Below are positions 6,628 through 17,202 of a DNA stretch of 64,000 nt, in pieces. The stretch comes from Pseudomonadota bacterium (GTDB taxonomy: Bacteria; Bdellovibrionota_B; Oligoflexia; Oligoflexales; CAIYRB01). The stretch is from the NCBI GenBank assembly GCA_026390445.1, contig JAPLFX010000121.1:4175-68174 (forward strand), given 5' to 3'. Position 1 is the first letter of the stretch; each line of letters begins with the position of its first letter. The position numbers were made by a program, and so were the translations under genes. A model generated the notes under the pieces. That model ran no database searches. It saw only the letters and a program-made list of their open reading frames with translations, and was not told where the DNA came from.

Positions 6628-7371
6628 ATGCAAAAACCAGTTTCATCTAAGCAACCGCAAGTTCAGTTTGGCAAAGGACTTCGAGTCTTCGGTGCGGTGG
6701 TCACCACGCTTGCAGCAACTCTAGCAGGCTGTGGAGGGCTTACGACGCTCAATTTGCGCAGCAAGCCTGCAAGTACTGAACCCGGTAGCAGCGCTCTCAC
6801 AAGCACTGCGGATGCAGCTGCTGCCGCCAAATGCGGGCATAAAGGCGACGGTAAAAAGGCCAAAAAAGGTAAGCACGGACAGAGTGGCTTCGCCCTCGCC
6901 GGAGCGACCGTGGTCACCTATGATGATCAAATTGCTGCGATCCTGAATCAAAGCTGCGTTGGTTGCCACAGTGGGATGGGTAGTTATAGCGGCGCTAAGG
7001 CCGACGGATCTAAGATCGTCAAAAGCGTTGCGAGCGGCAATATGCCCCCTGGCGGCCTGAGCGCTTCAGATAGACAGCTCTTTGCAAGCTGGCAGTCGGG
7101 TGGTTATTTGCAGTCGGCACCTGCGCCAGCACCGGCTCCTGCGCCAGCACCGGCTCCTGCGCCAGCACCGGCTCCTGCGCCAGCACCGGCTCCTGCGCCA
7201 GCACCGGCTCCTGCGCCAGCACCGGCTCCTGCGCCAGCACCGGCGCCAGCGCCAGCACCGGCTCCTGCGCCAGCTCCTGGAACGGGTACGTGCCAAGATG
7301 ACCATGATGCTGATGATGATCATCCACAAAAGGCAGGCGCCCATGCGCCTCACCGTCACAGTCAAGACTGA
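6628..7371 (+). CDS. lipoprotein with a single heme-c motif (planctomycete-cytochrome-c-like), Ala-Pro repeat and His/Asp-rich tail
   Basis: Lipobox LAGC. CVGCH (CxxCH) is followed by GNMPPGGLSASDRQLFASWQSGG, resembling the PSCyt1-type domain pattern. This is followed by 27 AP dipeptides and a C-terminal DDHDADDDHPQKAGAHAPHRH. Confidence 0.6.
   Translation: MQKPVSSKQPQVQFGKGLRVFGAVVTTLAATLAGCGGLTTLNLRSKPASTEPGSSALTSTADAAAAAKCGHKGDGKKAKKGKHGQSGFALAGATVVTYDDQIAAILNQSCVGCHSGMGSYSGAKADGSKIVKSVASGNMPPGGLSASDRQLFASWQSGGYLQSAPAPAPAPAPAPAPAPAPAPAPAPAPAPAPAPAPAPAPAPAPAPAPAPAPAPAPGTGTCQDDHDADDDHPQKAGAHAPHRHSQD
7117..7278 (+). repeat. in-frame tandem repeat encoding (Ala-Pro)x27
   Basis: The 18-bp unit gcgccagcaccggctcct occurs as six consecutive perfect copies at 7123..7230, followed by variants. 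Total length is 162 nt (54 codons), counted codon by codon. Confidence 0.95.
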
Positions 7372-7460: not shown

Positions 7461-7506
7461 CTTGATGACTTCTGTGCTGAGCAATGCAAACTGTGCGTCG
7501 ATCAGA

Positions 7507-7552
7507 TGGCGGTCGCGAGTGGAATCGAACCACTATCTGAGCTTTAGGAAAG
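7507..7552 (-). pseudogene. 3' fragment of split host tRNA-Arg(CCU), with junction core (attR-like)
   Basis: The minus strand reads CTTTCCTAA-AGCTC-AGAT-AGTGG-TTCGATT-CCACT-CGCGACC-G-CCA. There is no matching 5' acceptor strand upstream. It pairs perfectly with the 5' fragment at 17202..17165. Confidence 0.8.
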
Positions 7553-7990
7553 AAGCGTTATATCCACCCGGTATATGGCAGGGAGAGCGGCGTAAGGCAA
7601 GGCTTTTGGCCTCGGTGCTGCTTCCGTGCGACACCGTCGATGGCTTTTTTGTTGTGAGCCGAGCTGAGGGCCAGACGCCGGCGTGGGAGGTTCCCCAAGC
7701 CAGCCAGAGACGTGAAATCCCTTAATAATCTTTACGGAATAAAGTGGCTTAGTTTGATTTTTTTTAAAAAAATATATACCAATAAAATCAACTGATTAAA
7801 CTCGAGCCGAGTTCCGGCCCGTTCTTGGAGCCGAAAGGGTTCGCCCGCCCGGCTCACAAGCGGCATCATTGCGGCTGGTCAGCCTCAGACAAAGGTCTGT
7901 AATTAAGGTGACATGCAAGTAAAATCTCAAGAAATTCCTGGAAATTCCGAAGAGTTTATGCAAGACTAGGCTTGCCAGTTCGGGGATATT

Positions 7991-8263
7991 ATGAGTCAGG
8001 CCGCAAAAAATTCTAACCAACCTAGTCGCTTGGAGCGGAAGGCCCTGAGCTTTTTCCGTCGCACAAGGGGCATTTCCGATCTGCTGCCGATATACCGGGA
8101 GGCGATGGCGACGTACCCTGGACTGGGCGAGGATGCGGCCTTGGAGGCACTCTACACCTCCTGCGTAGCTGCCGAGCGTCGGCAAGCGGCCGACGTAGGC
8201 GACACCGCTACCTCGGAAGAGTTGGCAGGCATCGGCCGTTTAATCACCCTTCAGTCTCCGTGA
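7991..8263 (+). CDS. hypothetical protein (possible antitoxin partner)
   Basis: 90-aa ORF ending 12 nt upstream of the next ORF. Opposite strand to the rest of the element. GGGGATATT lies before the ATG. No family recognised. Confidence 0.35.
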   Translation: MSQAAKNSNQPSRLERKALSFFRRTRGISDLLPIYREAMATYPGLGEDAALEALYTSCVAAERRQAADVGDTATSEELAGIGRLITLQSP

Positions 8264-8275
8264 GTTCGGCAATCG

Positions 8276-8635
8276 ATGGCTGCAGCTTGGGATATTTATT
8301 GGCCTAAATCCGGCACCAAGTTCCTGATGGATCAGTCCGGCCGGGATCATATGATGCTAGTGGTCGGGGACCCTTACAGGTTCGGGGGTTATCCCTTTTT
8401 CCCCTTCATCCCGATTTCGCACACCCGTGCCGCTAATTACTGCGTGGCGCTGGCGGAAGCCGATGTCGCCCCCACTCAGGGCAGTCTTGGCGTCTCCAAT
8501 AGCTCTCATGCCTTATGCGGGTTGATTTTCACCGCCCGGGGTGACCAGTTCGGTACCCTGGTCGGCAAATTGACGAATAAAGCCAAAAAAGACGATATAT
8601 TAGAGGCGTTATCCAATCGGCTGGGGCTACTATAG
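8276..8635 (+). CDS. hypothetical protein, possible PemK/MazF-fold toxin
   Basis: 119 aa. The spacing pattern (W.IYW ... GRDHMMLVVGDP ... FIPISHT ... CVAL ... LCGLIFT ... GKL ... ILEALSNRLGLL) resembles the PemK/MazF architecture. By-eye only. Confidence 0.35.
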   Translation: MAAAWDIYWPKSGTKFLMDQSGRDHMMLVVGDPYRFGGYPFFPFIPISHTRAANYCVALAEADVAPTQGSLGVSNSSHALCGLIFTARGDQFGTLVGKLTNKAKKDDILEALSNRLGLL

Positions 8636-8647
8636 TCGATTCGACGC

Positions 8648-10276
8648 TCAGATCTCGCCCATATCCCTAATGTTTTGGGCCACCGGCTTACGGGCTTTCG
8701 CCCGTCGGCCCCGCAGTGGCCGCGTGCCGGACGCTGGGGCGGAGAGCCGCAGGCTCGGAGCCGTAGCGGTAGGCTCCGGACTGTGGCTCTTATAGCCATC
8801 ACAGTTAGTGCCCGCAGAGCTACCGACGTAGTCCAGCTCAAGCTGTTCTTGGACAATGCGTAGGGTATCGCCTAAGTGCTCGGCGAGCTGGTCAACGAGG
8901 TCCATATTGGCTGGAGCAGCGTGAACCATCCTCACCAATGCGACCAGTTTTTCGGCAGTGGTCCTTTGATCCATTGCGAGCAGGTGCTTATGGAGGTCTG
9001 CGATTCCTTCGCTGAGCACCGACCAAATTGGCCGATGTTCAGCACCTTCCGCCCGGAAGCCAAGGCCGATAAGGCCTGTCGAGGCTTCCCGGTCAGCTAG
9101 GTCCCTGGCACGGCGGTCGACGCTTTCAGACCAGAGTGCGAATAAGCCATCGCAGAGTTCTGACCACGGGACTAGCCGCTGGTGAGCAGCCGCAAGGAGG
9201 GCCAGCTGACGGTTGTGGAAGTTGGTGAGGGCATCGTGCAGAGTCAGTCGACCCGGCGTGGCTTTCGATTGTTTCTTTTCTGGTTCTTTGTCGGCCGCCA
9301 TGGTGGTCGCGGGGATTTTTTTGGCCTCGGTGCGGAATGGAGGCATCGCCATGGCCTCAGCGAATCTTATGGATGTCGGCCAGCGATTAGTCTTGGTCTT
9401 TTTGCTGACGTTGGTATTGGCGTTCGCTGGGCACTCTCGCACCGTCCGGCGTTGCGTCCACAGGTCAAAAAGCAGCGACGCTGACAACGTGCCGCCATAT
9501 AGGGCCGTCGTGACGGCACGCAGCGGTTGCTTGCCACTCATTCCTATCTCCAGCCTGGTGACGTCTTGGTCCTCCGGAACGCCATCTTTCTGCCACCGGG
9601 CAGTATGGGCCGCCAGGACATCGACGTCTTTGCACGCATTGTCCAGCCAACGCCTTTTAGAGTAAATGCGAAGTAGCCAAGCTCCCCGCGGTCCGGCAAG
9701 CCACACGCTGTTGTATTGGTTAAGAGGTGTGACTTTGTCACCCATGAACGGCCAGAATATTCGCTCTGACGGGAGGGGTAGGACATTGCGGGCGTTGATG
9801 GCGTTGCCAGCAAACTCCCGCATGGCCTCGGCCTGAGTGACATGGGCTTTCAGTGCGAAATGTTGGTGAAGAGCCAAGGCCATAGCCTTAATGATGTCCA
9901 GACCCGCCTTGTCGTCATACTGGAGCAGGGCCCAAAACTTGCCGTTAAAATCGATGCGAGTGCCGTGGGGTTCCACGGCGACGAAAATGCCGTTGTCTGT
10001 CTGGTAGGCTGGCGTATTCCCAGGGAGACGTTTCAGAGCGAGGCCCAATACTCGCCGTAGCTCGTCACCCGGGTCACCTGCATACCGGCTACGTATGAGC
10101 TTGGGGACGACGATGCGGAGGTTGTCGAAGTGCGGGACAGCTAGCGGGTGGTCCAGAGGCAAAGGCGGCAAGGTGGCAACGACTGGCGTCTGCCGACCAG
10201 CTTCACGGATAGCCCCTCGGGCGGCCCTGCAGGGCCGGCGTTTAGGGCGAGCCTTTTTTGCCTTGGCCCTTCCCAT
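8648..10276 (-). CDS. replication initiation protein (Rep_trans/RepSA-like rolling-circle initiator)
   Basis: The ordered motifs HGTRIDFNG, LLRIYSKRRW and VTRLEIGMSGKQ resemble the RID / RxYdK / tRxE blocks of replication initiation factor (PF02486-type) proteins. Basic N-terminus. Confidence 0.55.
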   Translation of the reverse strand: MGRAKAKKARPKRRPCRAARGAIREAGRQTPVVATLPPLPLDHPLAVPHFDNLRIVVPKLIRSRYAGDPGDELRRVLGLALKRLPGNTPAYQTDNGIFVAVEPHGTRIDFNGKFWALLQYDDKAGLDIIKAMALALHQHFALKAHVTQAEAMREFAGNAINARNVLPLPSERIFWPFMGDKVTPLNQYNSVWLAGPRGAWLLRIYSKRRWLDNACKDVDVLAAHTARWQKDGVPEDQDVTRLEIGMSGKQPLRAVTTALYGGTLSASLLFDLWTQRRTVRECPANANTNVSKKTKTNRWPTSIRFAEAMAMPPFRTEAKKIPATTMAADKEPEKKQSKATPGRLTLHDALTNFHNRQLALLAAAHQRLVPWSELCDGLFALWSESVDRRARDLADREASTGLIGLGFRAEGAEHRPIWSVLSEGIADLHKHLLAMDQRTTAEKLVALVRMVHAAPANMDLVDQLAEHLGDTLRIVQEQLELDYVGSSAGTNCDGYKSHSPEPTATAPSLRLSAPASGTRPLRGRRAKARKPVAQNIRDMGEI

Positions 10277-11588
10277 GGTGGTCGCCGCCCTTAAAAAAAT
10301 CTGGATTATATGGACCCCGGAACTTTATTAATTGATTGTTTTCATGGAGGAAAAACACCCCACGCGGCATTGGCTCTCGGGCTGCCCTGTCGCTTTGCAC
10401 CAGGGTCCGGGCCATGGCATCGCGGTATCGTCCGACTACCTTCCATGACAGACCATCGAGCTCGATGGCCAGTGCTCCGGCTGCAGGGTCTTGCACGCCA
10501 ATAAGACAGTGCCTCGATATCGCACGGTACTTCCGGAACCAGGCTCCTACGGTGTCGATAAGCTGGGCGTAGGTTTGCTCCAGATCGTTCCAAGGCTTCT
10601 CCTGGGTCGGGCGGCGGAGCGGCCTCAGGTAGTCTTTGGCCTCGTCACACACCAGCACCCACCTGGGATGGGTCTCGGGCGATACGATGCCGAGCCGGTA
10701 CAAGTCCTCGATGTGCTCAACATGGTGGGCGTCCAGGAGGTCGAGGAGGGCGGCGGCGGTAGCGTTCAACTCCGCCAAAAGTTGCTGGAGAGACGCCATG
10801 TCCGAGGGCTTGAAGGCATTGAACACCTGCGTTCCCGGGATTCGGCGGAACAGAGCCAAGTGCTTGGTGGAAATAACCACGATCCGGACGGACGGCGTCG
10901 TCTTCACCACCGACGTCAAGTACATCGCAATCCATGCCGACTTCCCGGATCCTGATGGAGCGATGATAGCGGCGGCCGGGTCATCGGCCAGCCGGCGGGT
11001 CAGTGGCGTGAGACGCTCCGATATTCCTAGAAAGGCGGTGAACGGCTCCATATCACGAGGCATTGCCGACAAATCGACAGCGTCGGGCACCGTGGCTGCA
11101 TGGAAGCGGAAGACCCGAGGGTCTTTATCATCTGCCGTACAGTCGTAGAACCAGGTGCCCCAACTGCCGGACCATAAATCCAGCTCGTCCCGGAGCTTCT
11201 GGCGTTTTACCCCGTGGGGGAACGTAACTCGGAGGGTGGCTTTCCGGACCTTGGATCGTCCGACCGTAATGCTTTCCCATTTGGCGATTGGGTATATCCA
11301 CTCACGGACGGCGGCGTTCTTCGGGGACAGGACCTCACGTTGCGATGCATAATTGTGCAACTCGTAGAATTCGTGACGCAGGTACTTGCGGCGGTAGTGA
11401 CGATAGAGGGAGCAACATGCCAGGGCAGGCAGGGTGAGGATTTTGATGGTGGACCTTGGATACCTGATGGCGAGAACAGTCGCCAAGCCGGCGATGACCC
11501 ACAATCCGAAATCATCGAGCGTCCCGCAGGCGGCCGAGGAGAGACCCCAGGCATGAACTGGCGGGATTTTGCAGATGATGTGTGTCAT
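10242..11588 (-). CDS. membrane-anchored P-loop ATPase, FtsK/SpoIIIE/TraB-like DNA translocase
   Basis: N-terminal hydrophobic segments, Walker A IIAPSGSGKS and Walker B WVLVCDEA. Strong RBS GAGGAGGAGG before the ATG at 11588. Confidence 0.5.
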   Translation of the reverse strand: MTHIICKIPPVHAWGLSSAACGTLDDFGLWVIAGLATVLAIRYPRSTIKILTLPALACCSLYRHYRRKYLRHEFYELHNYASQREVLSPKNAAVREWIYPIAKWESITVGRSKVRKATLRVTFPHGVKRQKLRDELDLWSGSWGTWFYDCTADDKDPRVFRFHAATVPDAVDLSAMPRDMEPFTAFLGISERLTPLTRRLADDPAAAIIAPSGSGKSAWIAMYLTSVVKTTPSVRIVVISTKHLALFRRIPGTQVFNAFKPSDMASLQQLLAELNATAAALLDLLDAHHVEHIEDLYRLGIVSPETHPRWVLVCDEAKDYLRPLRRPTQEKPWNDLEQTYAQLIDTVGAWFRKYRAISRHCLIGVQDPAAGALAIELDGLSWKVVGRYRDAMARTLVQSDRAAREPMPRGVFFLHENNQLIKFRGPYNPDFFKGGDHHGKGQGKKGSP

Positions 11589-11614: not shown

Positions 11615-11917
11615 CTAGGGTCGCCGGTAGACCTTGGTGACCGTGTGGAAATCGTTTTCCAGGCGGCTAATCTCGTCGTCGCCATCAACGAAAAATCCGT
11701 CACCCCGCCAGTCATGGGTCGGCGGTGGCGACACAGAAGCCAGCCACGCTTCGGCTGACTGCATAGGACGTAGATAAAGGTTCACGAGTGCGAGGGCGGC
11801 GGCGATGGTGGCGATTCCCGGTGGCGTGCCGATGGCGTTAGGACACCCACGACGCACCAGCCGCACACCGCCACCATAGGACCTGACGAACCGCCCCAGC
11901 ACTTCGTGCTCGTTCAT
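11615..11917 (-). CDS. hypothetical small membrane protein
   Basis: 100 aa with one hydrophobic segment (GIATIAAALALVNLYL). RBS GGAGGGAGG before the ATG. Start overlaps the stop of the upstream ORF. Confidence 0.5.
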   Translation of the reverse strand: MNEHEVLGRFVRSYGGGVRLVRRGCPNAIGTPPGIATIAAALALVNLYLRPMQSAEAWLASVSPPPTHDWRGDGFFVDGDDEISRLENDFHTVTKVYRRP

Positions 11918-12249
11918 GGCTTGCCTCCCTCCGCTGGCCTTTTCGCCGGCGTCGTGGCGGTGGTCGCCCCAGGCAGAATTTCCAAGATTCGACCGTAGAG
12001 GGCGGTTTGAGTGCCGCTGACGACGTAGGCACCGATTTCCACCCGCAAGGTTTGCACGCCTTTAGGCACCTCAACGGCGGACTTGAAACGCTCGACGGTC
12101 CGTTCCTCGAAAATTTCGTCCGACCCTGGGATGGTACGGACGTTCGTGCCTTCAAAAGCAACGAGGAATGGCGGTTGGTCTTTCTCGGCCTTGTCATTTG
12201 GGGAAGTGCCGAGGACACGGATGGTCATGATGACTGTAGCTTTCTTCAT
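11914..12249 (-). CDS. hypothetical protein
   Basis: 111 aa with AAAGG upstream of the ATG. Same strand and translationally coupled to the downstream ORF. No family recognised. Confidence 0.5.
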   Translation of the reverse strand: MKKATVIMTIRVLGTSPNDKAEKDQPPFLVAFEGTNVRTIPGSDEIFEERTVERFKSAVEVPKGVQTLRVEIGAYVVSGTQTALYGRILEILPGATTATTPAKRPAEGGKP

Positions 12250-12596
12250 GGTGTTACCTTTCAGAATGTTTTGCGTTGATGAATTGCGTTTGTGGCTAGA
12301 TGGATTCCGGTCGGATCATTGGCGGTTGGGCACGGCCCTCCTTTATGAGCCCAGGGAAATGGGGTGGGTGACATGCTGATAAGGTACCGAGATCCAAGTG
12401 CGGCGATTTAGGGGGGGTGGACAGCAAGATGGTCGCACGATCCGTAACCAAGATAAGTATTTGAAATAACGGGACATGTAGGAGATTGGCCCGCGGCCGA
12501 TGGGGAGGGCGTCACCCCCCTCTCGCAGCGGGATGACTGGTTTTGCGGCTGCCAGGAGCCAGACGGGCGATGCCATCTGACTCCGCTGACGGTGAT

Positions 12597-12869
12597 TTAT
12601 GCAGCCGCCCGGCGAGCAATGGACTCAACGACGACCTTCAGGCGTCCCGATTTTCTATCAACGGAGATGCGGCCCGCGCAGGTAAGGTCGACTTCACCGA
12701 CGACCAGACCGGCAGACGCCTTCACCAGTGCCCAAGTGGCCTCTTGTGTAGCGATGCCGTCGTAGCCTGCCCCTTTCAGGACGATAAAGGCGGACAGCCA
12801 TTCAGCGTTCTTGGTTTTATCCAAGCGGATGACTTTGATGACGGAGAATGATGCGGTCACTTGGTTCAT
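12597..12869 (-). CDS. hypothetical protein
   Basis: Start set to MNQVTASF (ATG at 12869) because of the RBS GAGGAAATT directly upstream. 90 aa. No family recognised. Confidence 0.45.
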   Translation of the reverse strand: MNQVTASFSVIKVIRLDKTKNAEWLSAFIVLKGAGYDGIATQEATWALVKASAGLVVGEVDLTCAGRISVDRKSGRLKVVVESIARRAAA

Positions 12870-13158
12870 AATTTCCTCGTGATTGAGTGTTGGCTGGGCG
12901 TTCTGCCCTCGCAAGAATGGGGCAGACGCAGCTAGCCAACTGGAGCGACGTCAGCCAGGCGGATTGCTCCGGCATACGTGCTGCAGGGAGGCTATATCCA
13001 CGGCGTCTGTAAAAGATGAAGTGGCCCCCGGAGGCACGGAGGCTGGTCATGGAGCTGGCGCTGACGAGCGGACGAGGGAGGAAATGGCTGCAAAACCGGG
13101 CCAGAGAGGCGTCGTGAGTACCCCTAACGGGTAATTTGCAGGCCAAGAACACATCGGA

Positions 13159-14247: not shown

Positions 14248-14334
14248 CGATGATCTCCCCGCGTCCTAGGTCGCCAATGGCACCACATTCAGCGTTCAAC
14301 ATTCAGCGTTCAACTGTGGTCCTGACACGGAGTC

Positions 14335-15579
14335 CTAAAAGGCGGCACAATGATAGGTCCCGACCCAGTTCGTCGTATAGTAGCTCGGACTATCAACTTC
14401 CATTGTGGTGCTCCCAAGATTCGTTACCACCGCCGTAGCGAATTTATATTGGTGATAGGTAGTGCTATTGATAGTGCAAGTGGTGGGAATGCCTGTCGCC
14501 ATATCACTGGCAAACGTCCCTGGCCATGGGTTTTGACCATTCCCGTTCTGGATCGTATATCCAGACGGCAGTGTCGGGTACGTAACCGTGAATTTGTAGT
14601 CATTGTTGGTCGCGACCGTACTCCCCACGGCATCGATAGCACTCACGCATGCATAGTAGGTCCCTTGCGTTAACGCCGTAAGTAGCTGCGTGACGGCCGT
14701 TGTGCTGTATGTTTGCGAGGGCGACGAGCAGTCGGAGTTCGAACTCACAGTGACCGAGTATGAGCCAGCCCCGTTGGCGGTGCCCCACGTCAACGTCGGT
14801 GTTTGGATCGTCGATACAGCGGTGCCCGAACTCACCGAGGTGACACTGAAGCTGCCAGGGGCAAGACTCACGGTAAATGCAAAGGGACTGTTCGCCGCGG
14901 TCAGCGTCGTCGAGCCGGATGTAGCAGTGACGCAGGAATAGTAACTGCCGGCGGTTAACGTAGTGAGGACCTGCGAGGTAGAGGTCACCGCCGTGTACGA
15001 CTGACTAGGACTACTACAATCCGAAGCTGCCGAAAGAGAGACACTGTAGGTAACCGTCGCTGTCGAAGGCGTAGGCGTTGAAGCTCCCCAGGTGACAGTA
15101 GGCGTCGCCGTGGTCGTCGCTGTAGCTGGGGCGGTGATGCTAAATGCTGCCAATTTCGGTGCGGCAGCCGTTAGAGTGACCGTGAATGCGAATGGGCTGT
15201 TGGTCGCAGCGAGGGTGGTCGACCCGGAGGTAGCGGTAACGCACACGTAGTAACTACCTGCCGTCAAGGCTGTCAGTGCTTGCGTGGTGGTCGTCACCGC
15301 GGTGTATGTCTGACTTGGACTACTGCAGTCGGATTTTGCTGAGGCCGAGACGTTATATACTACCGTAGCGCTTGATGGTGTCGGAGTTGCAGCTCCCCAG
15401 GTGACCGTTGGCGTTGCCGTGGTGATGGCGGCAGCCGGGGCGGTGATGCTGAATGCGGCAAGTGACGGAGCAGCGGCGGTAGGTGTGGCGGCAGTCGGAC
15501 TTGTAGCAGGCGATGGACCCTTGGACGATCCGCAAGCAGGCAACATGGCTATTAGCATGACCGTCGAGAGGCATTTCAT
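14335..15579 (-). CDS. lipoprotein with three tandem Ig/FN3-like repeats and a distinct C-terminal domain
   Basis: Signal peptide plus lipobox (MLPACGSS). RBS AGGAGGATC. Three ~100-aa units each contain TWG ... Y.V..S..SDCSSPSQ.Y ... LT.LT.G.YY.CV.A ... F.FTV. Confidence 0.7.
   Translation of the reverse strand: MKCLSTVMLIAMLPACGSSKGPSPATSPTAATPTAAAPSLAAFSITAPAAAITTATPTVTWGAATPTPSSATVVYNVSASAKSDCSSPSQTYTAVTTTTQALTALTAGSYYVCVTATSGSTTLAATNSPFAFTVTLTAAAPKLAAFSITAPATATTTATPTVTWGASTPTPSTATVTYSVSLSAASDCSSPSQSYTAVTSTSQVLTTLTAGSYYSCVTATSGSTTLTAANSPFAFTVSLAPGSFSVTSVSSGTAVSTIQTPTLTWGTANGAGSYSVTVSSNSDCSSPSQTYSTTAVTQLLTALTQGTYYACVSAIDAVGSTVATNNDYKFTVTYPTLPSGYTIQNGNGQNPWPGTFASDMATGIPTTCTINSTTYHQYKFATAVVTNLGSTTMEVDSPSYYTTNWVGTYHCAAF
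14575..15471 (-). repeat. three tandem ~300-bp intragenic repeats
   Basis: Approximate unit boundaries: aa 37-137 and 138-238 are near-identical, and aa 239-335 is diverged. This corresponds to 15471..15169, 15168..14866 and 14865..14575. Confidence 0.7.
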
Positions 15580-15791: not shown

Positions 15792-15866
15792 TGGCGGTCC
15801 CAGCAGGACTCGAACCTGCAACTGAGCTTTAGGAAAGCCCCGGTATATCCCTTTACCTATGGGACC
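15792..15866 (-). tRNA. tRNA-Arg (anticodon CCU), element-borne, CCA encoded
   Basis: 75 nt: GGTCCCA-TA-GGTA-AAGGGATA-TACC-G-GGGCT-TTCCTAA-AGCTC-AGTT-GCAGG-TTCGAGT-CCTGC-TGGGACC-G-CCA. All four stems pair. A small hairpin at 15712..15729 lies downstream. Confidence 0.85.
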
Positions 15867-15872
15867 TTACGG

Positions 15873-17042
15873 TCATGCGATGTCGTCCAAGTCTCTGTCC
15901 GCTTCGTCACGTTCTTTATCGCCAGGCGACCTAGCGTACAGAATCGTCGTCGACACCAAGGAATGCCTAAAATGACTCTTTGCGAGCATTATGTCGATAT
16001 TTTTCGTCCGTAGCAGCCAGAGACACGAGCTGCGGCGGAGGTCGTGCGGGGTCACGTTGAGGAGCGGGCGGACGTCCCTCGTATAGACCTTGTCATAATG
16101 CCCCCTTGTCCAGCTCCAGATGGGACCAGCCGGCAAGGTCTTCAGAATGTCGACGATCAGCTGGGCGGCGGTCATGTCCCAGATGCAGACATACTCGCGT
16201 CGGTATTGGTTCTTAACCTCCTCCTCTTCGCTGGCAATCTTGGCCCGTTCGACGCTGATAATCAGTTTACTGCCCATATCATAGCGTTTAAAGCCAGTAT
16301 AGGTTTCGCACTGGCTGGCGTTTTTGTTGCCGGTCAGGAAGTCCTTATGATGAAGTCCCGTGAATTCGCTCGGCGACAGCCCGCCAAAATAGCCGCACAG
16401 GACACCCAGAGCTGCCAACGGACTCTTGGCCAGCAGGGCACGAGCGGTTTGGAGGGCGGCCTCGGGATCGACTCTAACCTTGAGCGGGGTTTCTTTAACA
16501 TAATTGGCCGAGGGGATGTCCAGAATCCATGGTTGGCTGATTTTTTCCTTCTTGGCCAGCCAGCGTCCGAAATTATTGAGCAGCCACAGGATTTTTTTTA
16601 CGGAGCTGATGTCTAGCGTGCCCCGCCGTGTCTCCTGGCTCAGCAAATAGACGGGAAAGTCGGCGATTTGGTGCCGCCACTTGCGGACGTTTTTGAGACC
16701 GTGAATACCGATGAAGTAGGGCAGGATATAAACGGCCCAGGCATCGTGGGTGTCCCTCATCGTGACATCCTTGACGCCTCGCATGAGCTGATATTCTTTC
16801 GTAAAGGCAGCCCAGCAGCTCGATAGATCGTCGCCCTGGCGGAGCTGGTATCGTTGCACCCGGTGGACGGCTACGCCGTGGGCATTCTCCCAGTCCCGAA
16901 CCCACTCGGTTATACGATCGTCATCAAGGTCATCCAGGTGCCGACATTCAGCCCTCGGCACCTGCACATTTTTCTTGGCGATGGTGTCATAGTAATAAAC
17001 CGTCACCAGTTTCGAGCCGCGTCTCCTGGTCCAGCAAGCCAT
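15873..17042 (-). CDS. tyrosine-type site-specific recombinase/integrase
   Basis: C-terminal HDLRRS (HxxR) and RHSLVSTTILY (H...Y) boxes. The box I region reads GGLSPSEFTGL. RBS GAGAGGGA. Adjacent to the tRNA and to the split-tRNA junction. Confidence 0.75.
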   Translation of the reverse strand: MACWTRRRGSKLVTVYYYDTIAKKNVQVPRAECRHLDDLDDDRITEWVRDWENAHGVAVHRVQRYQLRQGDDLSSCWAAFTKEYQLMRGVKDVTMRDTHDAWAVYILPYFIGIHGLKNVRKWRHQIADFPVYLLSQETRRGTLDISSVKKILWLLNNFGRWLAKKEKISQPWILDIPSANYVKETPLKVRVDPEAALQTARALLAKSPLAALGVLCGYFGGLSPSEFTGLHHKDFLTGNKNASQCETYTGFKRYDMGSKLIISVERAKIASEEEEVKNQYRREYVCIWDMTAAQLIVDILKTLPAGPIWSWTRGHYDKVYTRDVRPLLNVTPHDLRRSSCLWLLRTKNIDIMLAKSHFRHSLVSTTILYARSPGDKERDEADRDLDDIA

Positions 17043-17164
17043 AATCGTCCCTCTCGTAGAGTGCGACGCTTCTTTTCGGCAATAAATTCAACGACCTTAG
17101 CATCATCCAAACTGCATCCGCTGCCGCCGCTGTAATCATTGACTAATTCAGCCAACTATAGGCC

Positions 17165-17202
17165 TTAGGAAAGCCCTGTTCTATCCGTTGAACTACGCAA
17201 CC
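17165..17202 (-). pseudogene. 5' fragment of split host tRNA-Arg(CCU), with junction core (attL-like)
   Basis: The minus strand reads GGTTGCG-TA-GTTC-AACGGATA-GAAC-A-GGGCT-TTCCTAA (38 nt), after which the sequence cannot complete the acceptor stem. Confidence 0.8.

Follow-up and report, generated by a model that had tools for sequence, protein, structure and literature searches.

Here, we describe a gene cassette found in a stretch of 64,000 nucleotides (nt) of contig JAPLFX010000121.1 (NCBI GenBank assembly GCA_026390445.1, positions 4,175 to 68,174 of the forward strand); this whole stretch is called the window below, and all positions are counted from its first letter. The cassette belongs to an element of 9.6 kb that interrupts a tRNA-Arg(CCU) gene of the host, and the cassette genes lie on the minus strand. 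Read along that strand, they encode a conserved all-β protein of 111 amino acids (aa) with a predicted oligonucleotide/oligosaccharide-binding (OB) fold like that of single-stranded DNA-binding proteins (SSB) and in a HelP-like position (11914..12249), the product of a 100-aa open reading frame (ORF) with a moderately hydrophobic segment at aa 27-54 (11615..11917), a 448-aa P-loop ATPase of the FtsK/SpoIIIE type (TcpA/ConQ-like), putatively a coupling protein or DNA translocase (10242..11588), and a 542-aa Rep_trans-like nickase, putatively a relaxase or rolling-circle initiator, assigned by its family profile and its fold (8648..10276). The ORFs of the last two overlap by 35 nt. In its general form, the cassette encodes an OB-fold protein resembling SSB, in some cases the product of a small ORF, an ATPase of the FtsK/TcpA type with a membrane anchor, and a nickase with a Rep_trans fold. 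A preliminary description of this DNA had counted only two DNA-processing genes besides the integrase gene, i.e., those of the 542-aa and 448-aa proteins; this count was too low, as the conserved gene for the SSB-like OB-fold protein at 11914..12249 is in the same module. With moderate confidence, we read the element as a putative integrative mobilizable element (IME) that has a relaxase of the rolling-circle replication (RCR) type and resides in a lipopolysaccharide (LPS)-diderm host.

The 542-aa protein is without a match in Pfam (E up to 10), PHROGs, NCBIfam, PADLOC, and the PDB sequences. A word-indexed search of 5.8 billion proteins returned only the queries themselves for both the 542-aa and the 448-aa proteins, likewise when an alignment was used. 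In an exhaustive HMMER search of 1.84 billion cluster representatives, six true relatives of the 542-aa protein were found (E 1e-52 to 2.3e-4). Four of them are full-length (495-565 aa) and, like a fifth, which is a C-terminal piece of 319 aa, match at E 1e-52 to 1.4e-17; the sixth is a 70-aa fragment (E 2.3e-4). Because there are six nickase relatives and also syntenic ATPase homologues in four metagenome contigs, sequence comparison identifies the 542-aa and 448-aa proteins as products of conserved genes and not of chance ORFs. The nickase family is rare, i.e., it has seven members in the 1.84 billion clusters with the window protein and the 70-aa fragment included. The host phylum is small, with 131 species genomes in the collection, and no nickase relative was found in the other 130, either with the single protein or with the profile. 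Pattern scans of IMG/VR and of the GTDB species genomes showed no relatives for the Rep or ATPase families, and a metagenome pattern scan yielded one locus (L004). Neither tblastn against plasmids nor a search of phages with pT181 RepC gave a match.

The features that define the nickase family were taken from an alignment of the 542-aa protein and its six relatives (A1; seven members including the 70-aa fragment). The conserved blocks of A1 are PK-x-D-W-L-R, R-I-(D/E)-F-x-G-(K/R)-F, H-L-T-R-x-D-x-x-R-D-F, L-R-I-Y-(D/S/N)-K, and (T/S)-R-x-E, and their counterparts in pT181 RepC are RIEFNPNK, FTRLDLAFDF, FIRIYNK, and LWRVEIEL. As a reference we used A4, an alignment of six annotated plasmid Rep_trans proteins, one of which comes from a plasmid typed MOBT. 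The hhalign comparison of A1 with A4 gave P 1.4e-4 over 114 columns with four motifs in register, namely, RI(D/E)F, T(R)xD..(D/E)F, RIYxK, and RxE; with the N-domain alone, P was 7.8e-5, and with global alignment it was 1e-5. The controls gave P values of 0.10-0.56 (reversed A4, 0.56; ATPase family, 0.14; OB family, 0.18), and the comparison of A1 with pT181 RepC alone gave 1.7e-3. All three sequence blocks quoted in the preliminary description are present in the protein, i.e., TRIDF at aa 106-110, RIYSKR at aa 203-208, and TRLEIGMSG at aa 240-248. TRIDF had been listed as a block of a rolling-circle-type initiator; it aligns with the RIEFNPN strand of pT181 RepC, and not with the TRxDxxxD motif, for which the window protein has VTQAEAMREF.

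Motif III of the 542-aa protein (LLRIYSK) contains Y205 and K207, and in the alignment Tyr205 falls on the Tyr that is invariant in the RIYxK motif of Rep_trans proteins. The Ile-Tyr pair is invariant in all five full-length sequences and the Lys position is K or R; in the AlphaFold model, the Tyr and Lys of RIYxK are on or at a β-strand of aa 200-206. By residue count, the Tyr of RIYNK is Tyr191 of RepC, which we take to be the catalytic tyrosine of that protein. In Rep_trans/MobT proteins, the catalytic Tyr is located in motif III on a central β-strand, the Lys two residues further on is essential, and the cation is held by three acidic residues of motifs N', I, and IV (Soler et al. 2019, PMC6499999). 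The putative counterparts in the 542-aa protein are Y205 and K207 (motif III), D52 (N'), E150/E153 (I), and E244 (IV). D52, which was assigned to motif N' by eye, and E244, which is aligned in motif IV, are conserved in the family. Motif I is degenerate in the 542-aa protein (VTQAEAMREF versus FTRLDLAFDF in RepC) and also in two relatives; only its second acidic position (E153) is found family-wide, and the Arg and the first Asp are not conserved.

The AlphaFold model built on A1 has a pLDDT of about 90 at aa 40-310, and its strands coincide with the conserved motifs. The protein is laid out as a catalytic N-domain (about aa 40-310), a helical C-terminal domain (aa 353-489), and then a disordered tail. 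When the model was compared by Foldseek with predicted viral structures (BFVD), the best matches were Inoviridae proteins, the top one being labelled 'GST REP' (E 2.8e-7, prob 1.0); we infer that this label denotes the Rep_trans structure 4CIJ from Geobacillus stearothermophilus, which is named in PMC6499999. These matches to Inoviridae are probably due to a common Rep_trans fold and do not identify the element as a phage. The matches that Foldseek gave in the PDB for the full-length model (e.g., AdoMetDC, Dop, and aspartate kinase) are only weak and unrelated and were treated as noise. We are reasonably confident that the 542-aa protein is a very divergent Rep_trans-fold nickase to which a helical C-terminal domain has been added. 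As a side observation, a C-D-G-Y-x-x-H motif at aa 492-498 (8783-8803) is invariant in the three closest family members, and more distant members have C-(N/S)-H-P further upstream in its place; a small motif for metal binding or for interaction is conceivable here.

The 448-aa protein was previously described as a membrane-anchored FtsK-like ATPase, and this assignment holds on the basis of phrog_1358, the family profile, and an N-terminal helix. The motifs quoted for it are present (Walker A, APSGSGKS, aa 210-217; Walker B, VLVCDEA, aa 311-317), and there is a conserved Gln motif, IGVQDP, at aa 363-368. There is one clear hydrophobic helix (aa 23-44) and one weaker (aa 46-62); the order of an N-terminal anchor and then the ATPase domain is kept in four of five homologues (the window protein, L004, L008, and L009), and the protein ends about 20 aa past the ATPase domain. 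Searched alone, it has only sub-threshold P-loop matches, the most specific being phrog_1358 'FtsK/SpoIIIE-like' (1.2e-5), with EccCb at 8e-4. At the level of the family, phrog_1358 is matched by four of the five members (best E 2e-12). PF01580, which had been proposed as a profile for this protein, misses the window protein but matches two of the five members (best E 1.8e-9).

Against the PDB, the ATPase family profile matches FtsK motors (6.6e-8), YukB/EccC, and the chains 6o1w-6o1z ('DNA translocase coupling protein', 1.9e-6), the last over nearly the whole ATPase domain; these chains are presumably TcpA of pCW3. If L008, the most FtsK-like member, is left out of the profile, the same targets still rank first, with E values of only 0.03-0.2. 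The L008 ATPase is tied to the other members by hhalign (P 4e-4 over 203 columns). An identity of the ATPase as a STAND/AAA_16 NTPase was considered and rejected, as its matches are weaker than those of the FtsK type and below threshold. Judged from its motifs and profile matches, the 448-aa protein belongs to the FtsK/SpoIIIE-type ATPases as a divergent member, anchored in the membrane by its N-terminus.

The AlphaFold 2 model of the 111-aa protein (pLDDT 79) consists of five long strands. Its top Foldseek matches in the PDB are mostly bacterial, organellar, and mitochondrial SSBs (prob 0.9-0.99, E 0.02-0.2), and some ribosomal and other OB-fold proteins are among them. No match to it was found in Pfam, PHROG, PADLOC, or the PDB sequences, and it has no detectable sequence homology to HelP or to Orf22-23 of Tn916; the likeness to HelP is in position and in predicted fold only. 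The neighbouring 100-aa ORF, between the OB-fold and ATPase genes, has a weakly similar C-terminus in L004 (762-1010, by eye). A further small protein of 90 aa (12597..12869, minus strand) is 31% identical to its counterpart in L009 (3540-3791); its profile search of the PDB gave only non-significant uS12 matches, and it may be a second OB-fold protein. There is no detectable kinship between the 111-aa and 90-aa conserved small proteins (hhalign P 0.02, 23 columns).

The ATPase gene is directly upstream of the nickase gene, or overlaps it, in the window and in the metagenomic relatives L004, L007, L008, and L009, and in L004, L008, and L009 the ATPase gene is itself immediately preceded by a gene for a homologue of the 111-aa OB-fold protein. 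The four-gene cassette is the only thing that the relatives have in common. The integration genes near it are a tyrosine recombinase gene by tRNA-Arg in the window, a tyrosine recombinase gene by tRNA-Asp in L009, a large serine recombinase gene beside tRNA-Asp in L004, and in L008 a gene for a probable tyrosine recombinase, whose C-terminal motif was recognized by eye. Between the integrases of the window, L009, and L008, there is no detectable kinship beyond the family level. With integration modules that differ in this way, the cassette acts as a functional unit that is portable. Of all the elements seen, none is much above about 10 kb, and none encodes a type IV secretion system (T4SS) or other secretion system. 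One copy of the cassette (L006 1-12643 / L007 5943-8793) is decaying, i.e., its nickase is split into pieces of 113 and 319 aa, its ATPase is without a transmembrane helix, and the OB-fold gene is absent.

Several minor observations were made on these relatives. The loci L004 4357-6092 and L009 4065-5526 both adjoin tRNA-Asp(GTC) with recombinases of different type, and the serine recombinase ORF of L004 extends into the tRNA-Asp(GTC) gene. The L006 copy adjoins genes for a phospholipase D (PLD) nuclease, a helicase, and an HNH protein, which resemble a defence island. A gene for a LysM-domain protein directly follows the nickase gene in the L009/L010 relative (L009 3057-3317, L010 2041-2301), and the MOBT plasmid of Lactobacillus johnsonii, a Rep_trans reference, has the order SSB, Rep_trans, LysM protein (L017 1308-1521); this parallel is possibly meaningful and would point to a peptidoglycan-binding partner of such modules.

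The closest analogue of the cassette, which was not named in the preliminary description, is the helP-conQ-nicK module together with the MobT+TcpA elements of Firmicutes. HelP of ICEBs1 has an OB fold, and the arrangement (helP)-helP-conQ-nicK, sometimes with one or two additional genes, is found in more than 40 integrative and conjugative elements (ICEs), almost all of them from Firmicutes (Thomas et al. 2013, PMC3542172). In streptococci, 24 IMEs carry both a MobT relaxase of the Rep_trans type and their own TcpA coupling protein; TcpA is distantly related to FtsK and TraB, and it is also through MobT that the element, once excised, is maintained by the rolling-circle mode (Guedon et al. 2017, PMC5704250). 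It is because the cassette order and the putative activities equal those of known MobT/TcpA systems that we favor a mobilizable element.

The window cassette has the same order of OB-fold protein, FtsK-like ATPase, and Rep_trans-type nickase as helP-conQ-nicK of ICEBs1 (in Tn916, orf23/orf22-orf21-orf20; in ICESt3, RelSt3); its nickase likewise has the Tyr of RIYxK on a β-strand and candidate acidic residues in N', I, and IV, and probably serves both transfer and rolling-circle replication. It differs from these modules in that no family member reaches the PF02486 threshold and there is no detectable sequence similarity to HelP-type families, in the larger nickase (542 aa) with its extra helical C-terminal domain, in the lack of T4SS genes after the module, and in the host, which is not a Firmicute but belongs to a small phylum and is an LPS diderm. 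With the streptococcal MobT+TcpA IMEs, e.g., IME_SsuBM407_tRNAleu, the element shares a small size, integration into a tRNA gene, an integrase, a relaxase of RCR-initiator type, its own FtsK-like coupling protein, no encoded mating pore, and exchangeable integration modules. For those IMEs, however, helpers are known or have been proposed, namely, ICEs of the Tn916/ICESt3 type, which have FA-type pores, whereas for the window element no helper is visible in the host genome or the host family, and its proteins are far more divergent. With pT181 RepC, pC221 RepD, RepSTK1 (PDB 4CIJ), and the inovirus Rep_trans Reps, the window nickase shares catalytic motifs in register and a fold like that of 'GST REP', but its motif I is degenerate, it has no Pfam match, and it is about 200 aa longer; the plasmid Reps, unlike the window nickase, are not coupled to a membrane ATPase.

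We propose the following mechanism for the putative mobilizable element. The tyrosine recombinase would excise the element, and the 542-aa protein would then nick one strand at an origin via Tyr205, while D52, E150/E153, and E244 would coordinate a divalent metal, and would stay attached to the 5' end. A host helicase would unwind the DNA, the OB-fold protein possibly binding the single strand or supporting the helicase, and the free 3' end could serve as the primer from which the excised circle is replicated in rolling-circle mode. As the coupling protein, the membrane ATPase would be the component that passes the complex of nickase and single-stranded DNA (ssDNA) into a mating channel; the channel is not encoded by the element and would have to be borrowed from a helper. 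If so, the 'Rep' of the element is probably also its relaxase. The earlier statement that the locus has no relaxase or T4SS was therefore half right: neither a T4SS nor a canonical relaxase was found in the element by Pfam, PHROG, and NCBIfam searches, but 'no relaxase' is probably wrong, as the Rep_trans protein is likely the relaxase itself.

The host is an LPS diderm, i.e., Gram-negative-type, because its metagenome-assembled genome (MAG; 4.17 Mb, 93% complete) encodes Omp85/BamA and LpxC; the earlier remark that the host does not look actinobacterial is borne out by the same BamA and LpxC genes. In such a cell, it is conceivable, though improbable, that the cassette exports DNA self-sufficiently and independently of a T4SS, as a minimal conjugation machine or by capsid-less ssDNA extrusion. 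This would explain the lack of a visible helper T4SS in the genome and in the host family, and the cassette would then sit evolutionarily between rolling-circle plasmids, inoviruses, and MobT/TcpA conjugation, which we likewise regard as a distant prospect.

A number of results weigh against a MobT/TcpA-like mobilizable element, and they are collected here. The preliminary description called the 542-aa protein Rep_trans-like; profile-profile comparison and fold are in line with this, but PF02486 itself does not match the protein even at E up to 10, and its best match within the nickase family is to one of the seven members at E 0.09. The invariant Arg and first Asp of the Rep_trans motif I are replaced by Gln and Glu in the 542-aa protein and are lost in two relatives. 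No solved Rep_trans structure (e.g., 4CIJ or 4CWC) is among the top 50 Foldseek matches of the 542-aa model in the PDB. The OB-fold assignment has weak Foldseek E values (0.02-0.2) and a four-sequence alignment behind it. No origin or nick site was identified in the element, where we have candidate hairpins only, and blastn-short of the element against its relatives showed no conserved non-coding DNA, hence no origin by conservation. As to a helper, the MAG (93% complete) has no VirB4 (PF03135) and no VirD4 (PF02534), and AAA_10 is matched below threshold only; VirB4 is present in eight of the 131 genomes of the host phylum and in none of the 12 listed genomes of the host family, this MAG included. 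Please note that the absence of a T4SS is weak evidence, because MAGs often miss plasmids and ICEs. To our knowledge, the known MobT/TcpA systems use mating pores of the Gram-positive type (FA class), which are not known in diderms. With respect to PF02486 elsewhere, a six-frame search of the MAG found nothing, and in the rest of the host phylum there is one sub-threshold match.

Other readings of the element have to be weighed on the same evidence. It may be an integrative plasmid-like element that only replicates by RCR, or a decaying remnant, with no transfer and with an ATPase that serves segregation, defence, or exclusion. The classical role of Rep_trans proteins is that of initiators on plasmids, a helper T4SS could not be detected, the L006/L007 relative is clearly decaying, and the ATPase has a weak PADLOC match to mad8 (2.7e-5), all of which would suit an element of this kind. 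However, the cassette genes of the window are intact, co-oriented, and translationally coupled through the 35-nt overlap; the membrane anchor is kept in four of the five ATPase homologues; and the ATPase-nickase pair is strictly kept across different integrases, which suggests a joint role in DNA export as in conQ-nicK. We thus regard replication without transfer as unlikely.

The preliminary description had offered two models for the locus, an AICE-like core, after the actinomycete integrative conjugative elements (AICEs), and an inovirus-like core, and both fail when examined for the features that define them. For the first, the element would be self-transmissible and minimal, with the FtsK-like ATPase alone acting as the export pore for double-stranded DNA (dsDNA) or ssDNA, and the Rep_trans-like protein would only replicate the circle. 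The gene content does resemble that of AICEs such as pSAM2 (int, xis, repSA, traSA), i.e., both are small, are integrated into a tRNA gene, and encode an integrase, an initiator, and just one membrane ATPase of the FtsK-like kind, and there are no T4SS markers in the MAG; TcpA, TraB, and FtsK are, moreover, all distantly related (PMC5704250). On the other hand, the ATPase lacks the C-terminal DNA-recognition domain of the TraB type, and the clt-type 8-bp repeats that had been suggested were not found, since neither enrichment nor clustering of any 8-mer goes beyond a Markov null (the highest count, 6, equals the 95th percentile of the null). The initiator is Rep_trans-like, with no match to the RepSA, RepAM, or Prim-Pol families of Pfam, and no spd, nudix, or kor genes are recognizable in the element. 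The host is a diderm with outer membrane and LPS genes, not an actinomycete, and a single inner-membrane pump cannot obviously cross such an envelope; TraB-type transfer has been described only for mycelial Actinobacteria (PMC5704250). The tight link of the ATPase to a nickase and an SSB-like protein also points to ssDNA rather than dsDNA. An AICE-like mode of transfer is thus quite improbable for this element.

For the second model, the element would be an integrated inovirus-like or other small ssDNA virus with a Rep initiator, a gV-like OB-fold protein, and an assembly or extrusion ATPase. The best fold matches of the 542-aa protein are indeed Rep proteins of Inoviridae, a small SSB-like protein is present, and the element is small, integrated, and rich in small ORFs. 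The ATPase, however, has no Zot/pI match in Pfam (E up to 10), including PF05707 which had been proposed for it, or in PHROGs, and its N-terminal anchor followed by the ATPase domain is opposite to the topology of pI/Zot proteins. Apart from the ATPase, no listed ORF of the element has a helix with a Kyte-Doolittle value of 1.6 or more over 19 aa, i.e., there are no small hydrophobic coat-like ORFs; no PHROG structural family was matched, the IMG/VR pattern scans gave no viral contig for either the Rep or the ATPase family, and the relatives do not share any candidate coat gene. We consider an inovirus-like identity very unlikely. A PM2-like or other capsid-bearing virus was rejected, as nothing capsid-like was recognized (two predicted structures).

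Returning to the mobilizable element, we view the module, again with middling confidence, as a highly divergent variant of the known MobT/TcpA/HelP-type DNA-processing module, its function being presumed. Reviews describe MobT relaxases, TcpA-type coupling proteins, and HelP mainly as a speciality of Firmicutes with Gram-positive-type pores. The same cassette architecture is now seen in an LPS-diderm MAG of a small phylum, with proteins so divergent that PF02486 and PF01580 miss both of them, which suggests that screens using current profiles for relaxases (MOB) and type IV coupling proteins (T4CP) can overlook whole families. It also raises the question of which channel such a module uses in a cell with an outer membrane, and the rare nickase family is usable for probing how far Rep_trans proteins tolerate changes in motif I. 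The practical value is moderate, as the family is very rare and the function is putative.

The remainder of the element is as follows. At the left junction is the 3' half of the disrupted host tRNA-Arg(CCU) gene (7505..7553, minus strand; direct repeat D3), and at the right junction is its 5' half (17162..17202, minus strand; direct repeat D6). The core TTAGGAAAG is common to both halves (7545-7553 on the left, 17165-17173 on the right), and when the two flanks are joined in silico into an empty site, tRNA-Arg(CCT) is restored. The element also bears an intact tRNA-Arg(CCU) gene (15792..15866, minus strand; ARAGORN; Rfam tRNA, 58 bits), which is adjoined by the integrase gene (15873..17042, minus strand), encoding a divergent tyrosine recombinase of 389 aa with a weak C-terminal PF00589 match (E 0.007). 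Along the minus strand, the order is the tyrosine recombinase gene, tRNA-Arg, the gene of a repeat-rich lipoprotein (14335-15579, minus strand), several small ORFs, and the ATPase and nickase genes. All genes of the element are on the minus strand except one plus-strand pair of 90 aa and 119 aa (7991-8635), which is without a match in Pfam, NCBIfam, and PADLOC.

The two most stable local hairpins of the element (8674-8793; -30.5 and -32.9 kcal/mol per 50 nt) are inside the last 45 or so codons of the nickase gene, which encode the disordered and poorly conserved tail, and are next to the convergent plus-strand pair; possible roles are that of a terminator acting in both directions and that of an origin, either single-strand or for transfer. 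Strong inverted repeats are also present at 12889-12938 and 12484-12593, in the non-coding gaps 12870-13158 and 12250-12596 upstream of the small conserved genes; these are candidates for origin, terminator, or single-strand origin (sso) structures and have no DNA-level conservation in the relatives. In the gap between the lipoprotein gene and a 114-aa ORF, a 14-bp unit, CATTCAGCGTTCAA, is present in two tandem copies at 14286-14321 (families D5 and D11), and its first 12 bases are found once more at 12799-12810; this unit could be an operator or iteron-like site. Just outside the element, a plus-strand gene at 6628-7371 encodes a lipoprotein with a weak cytochrome-c-like CxxCH region and then a perfect (Ala-Pro) repeat, which is encoded by an 18-bp tandem array.

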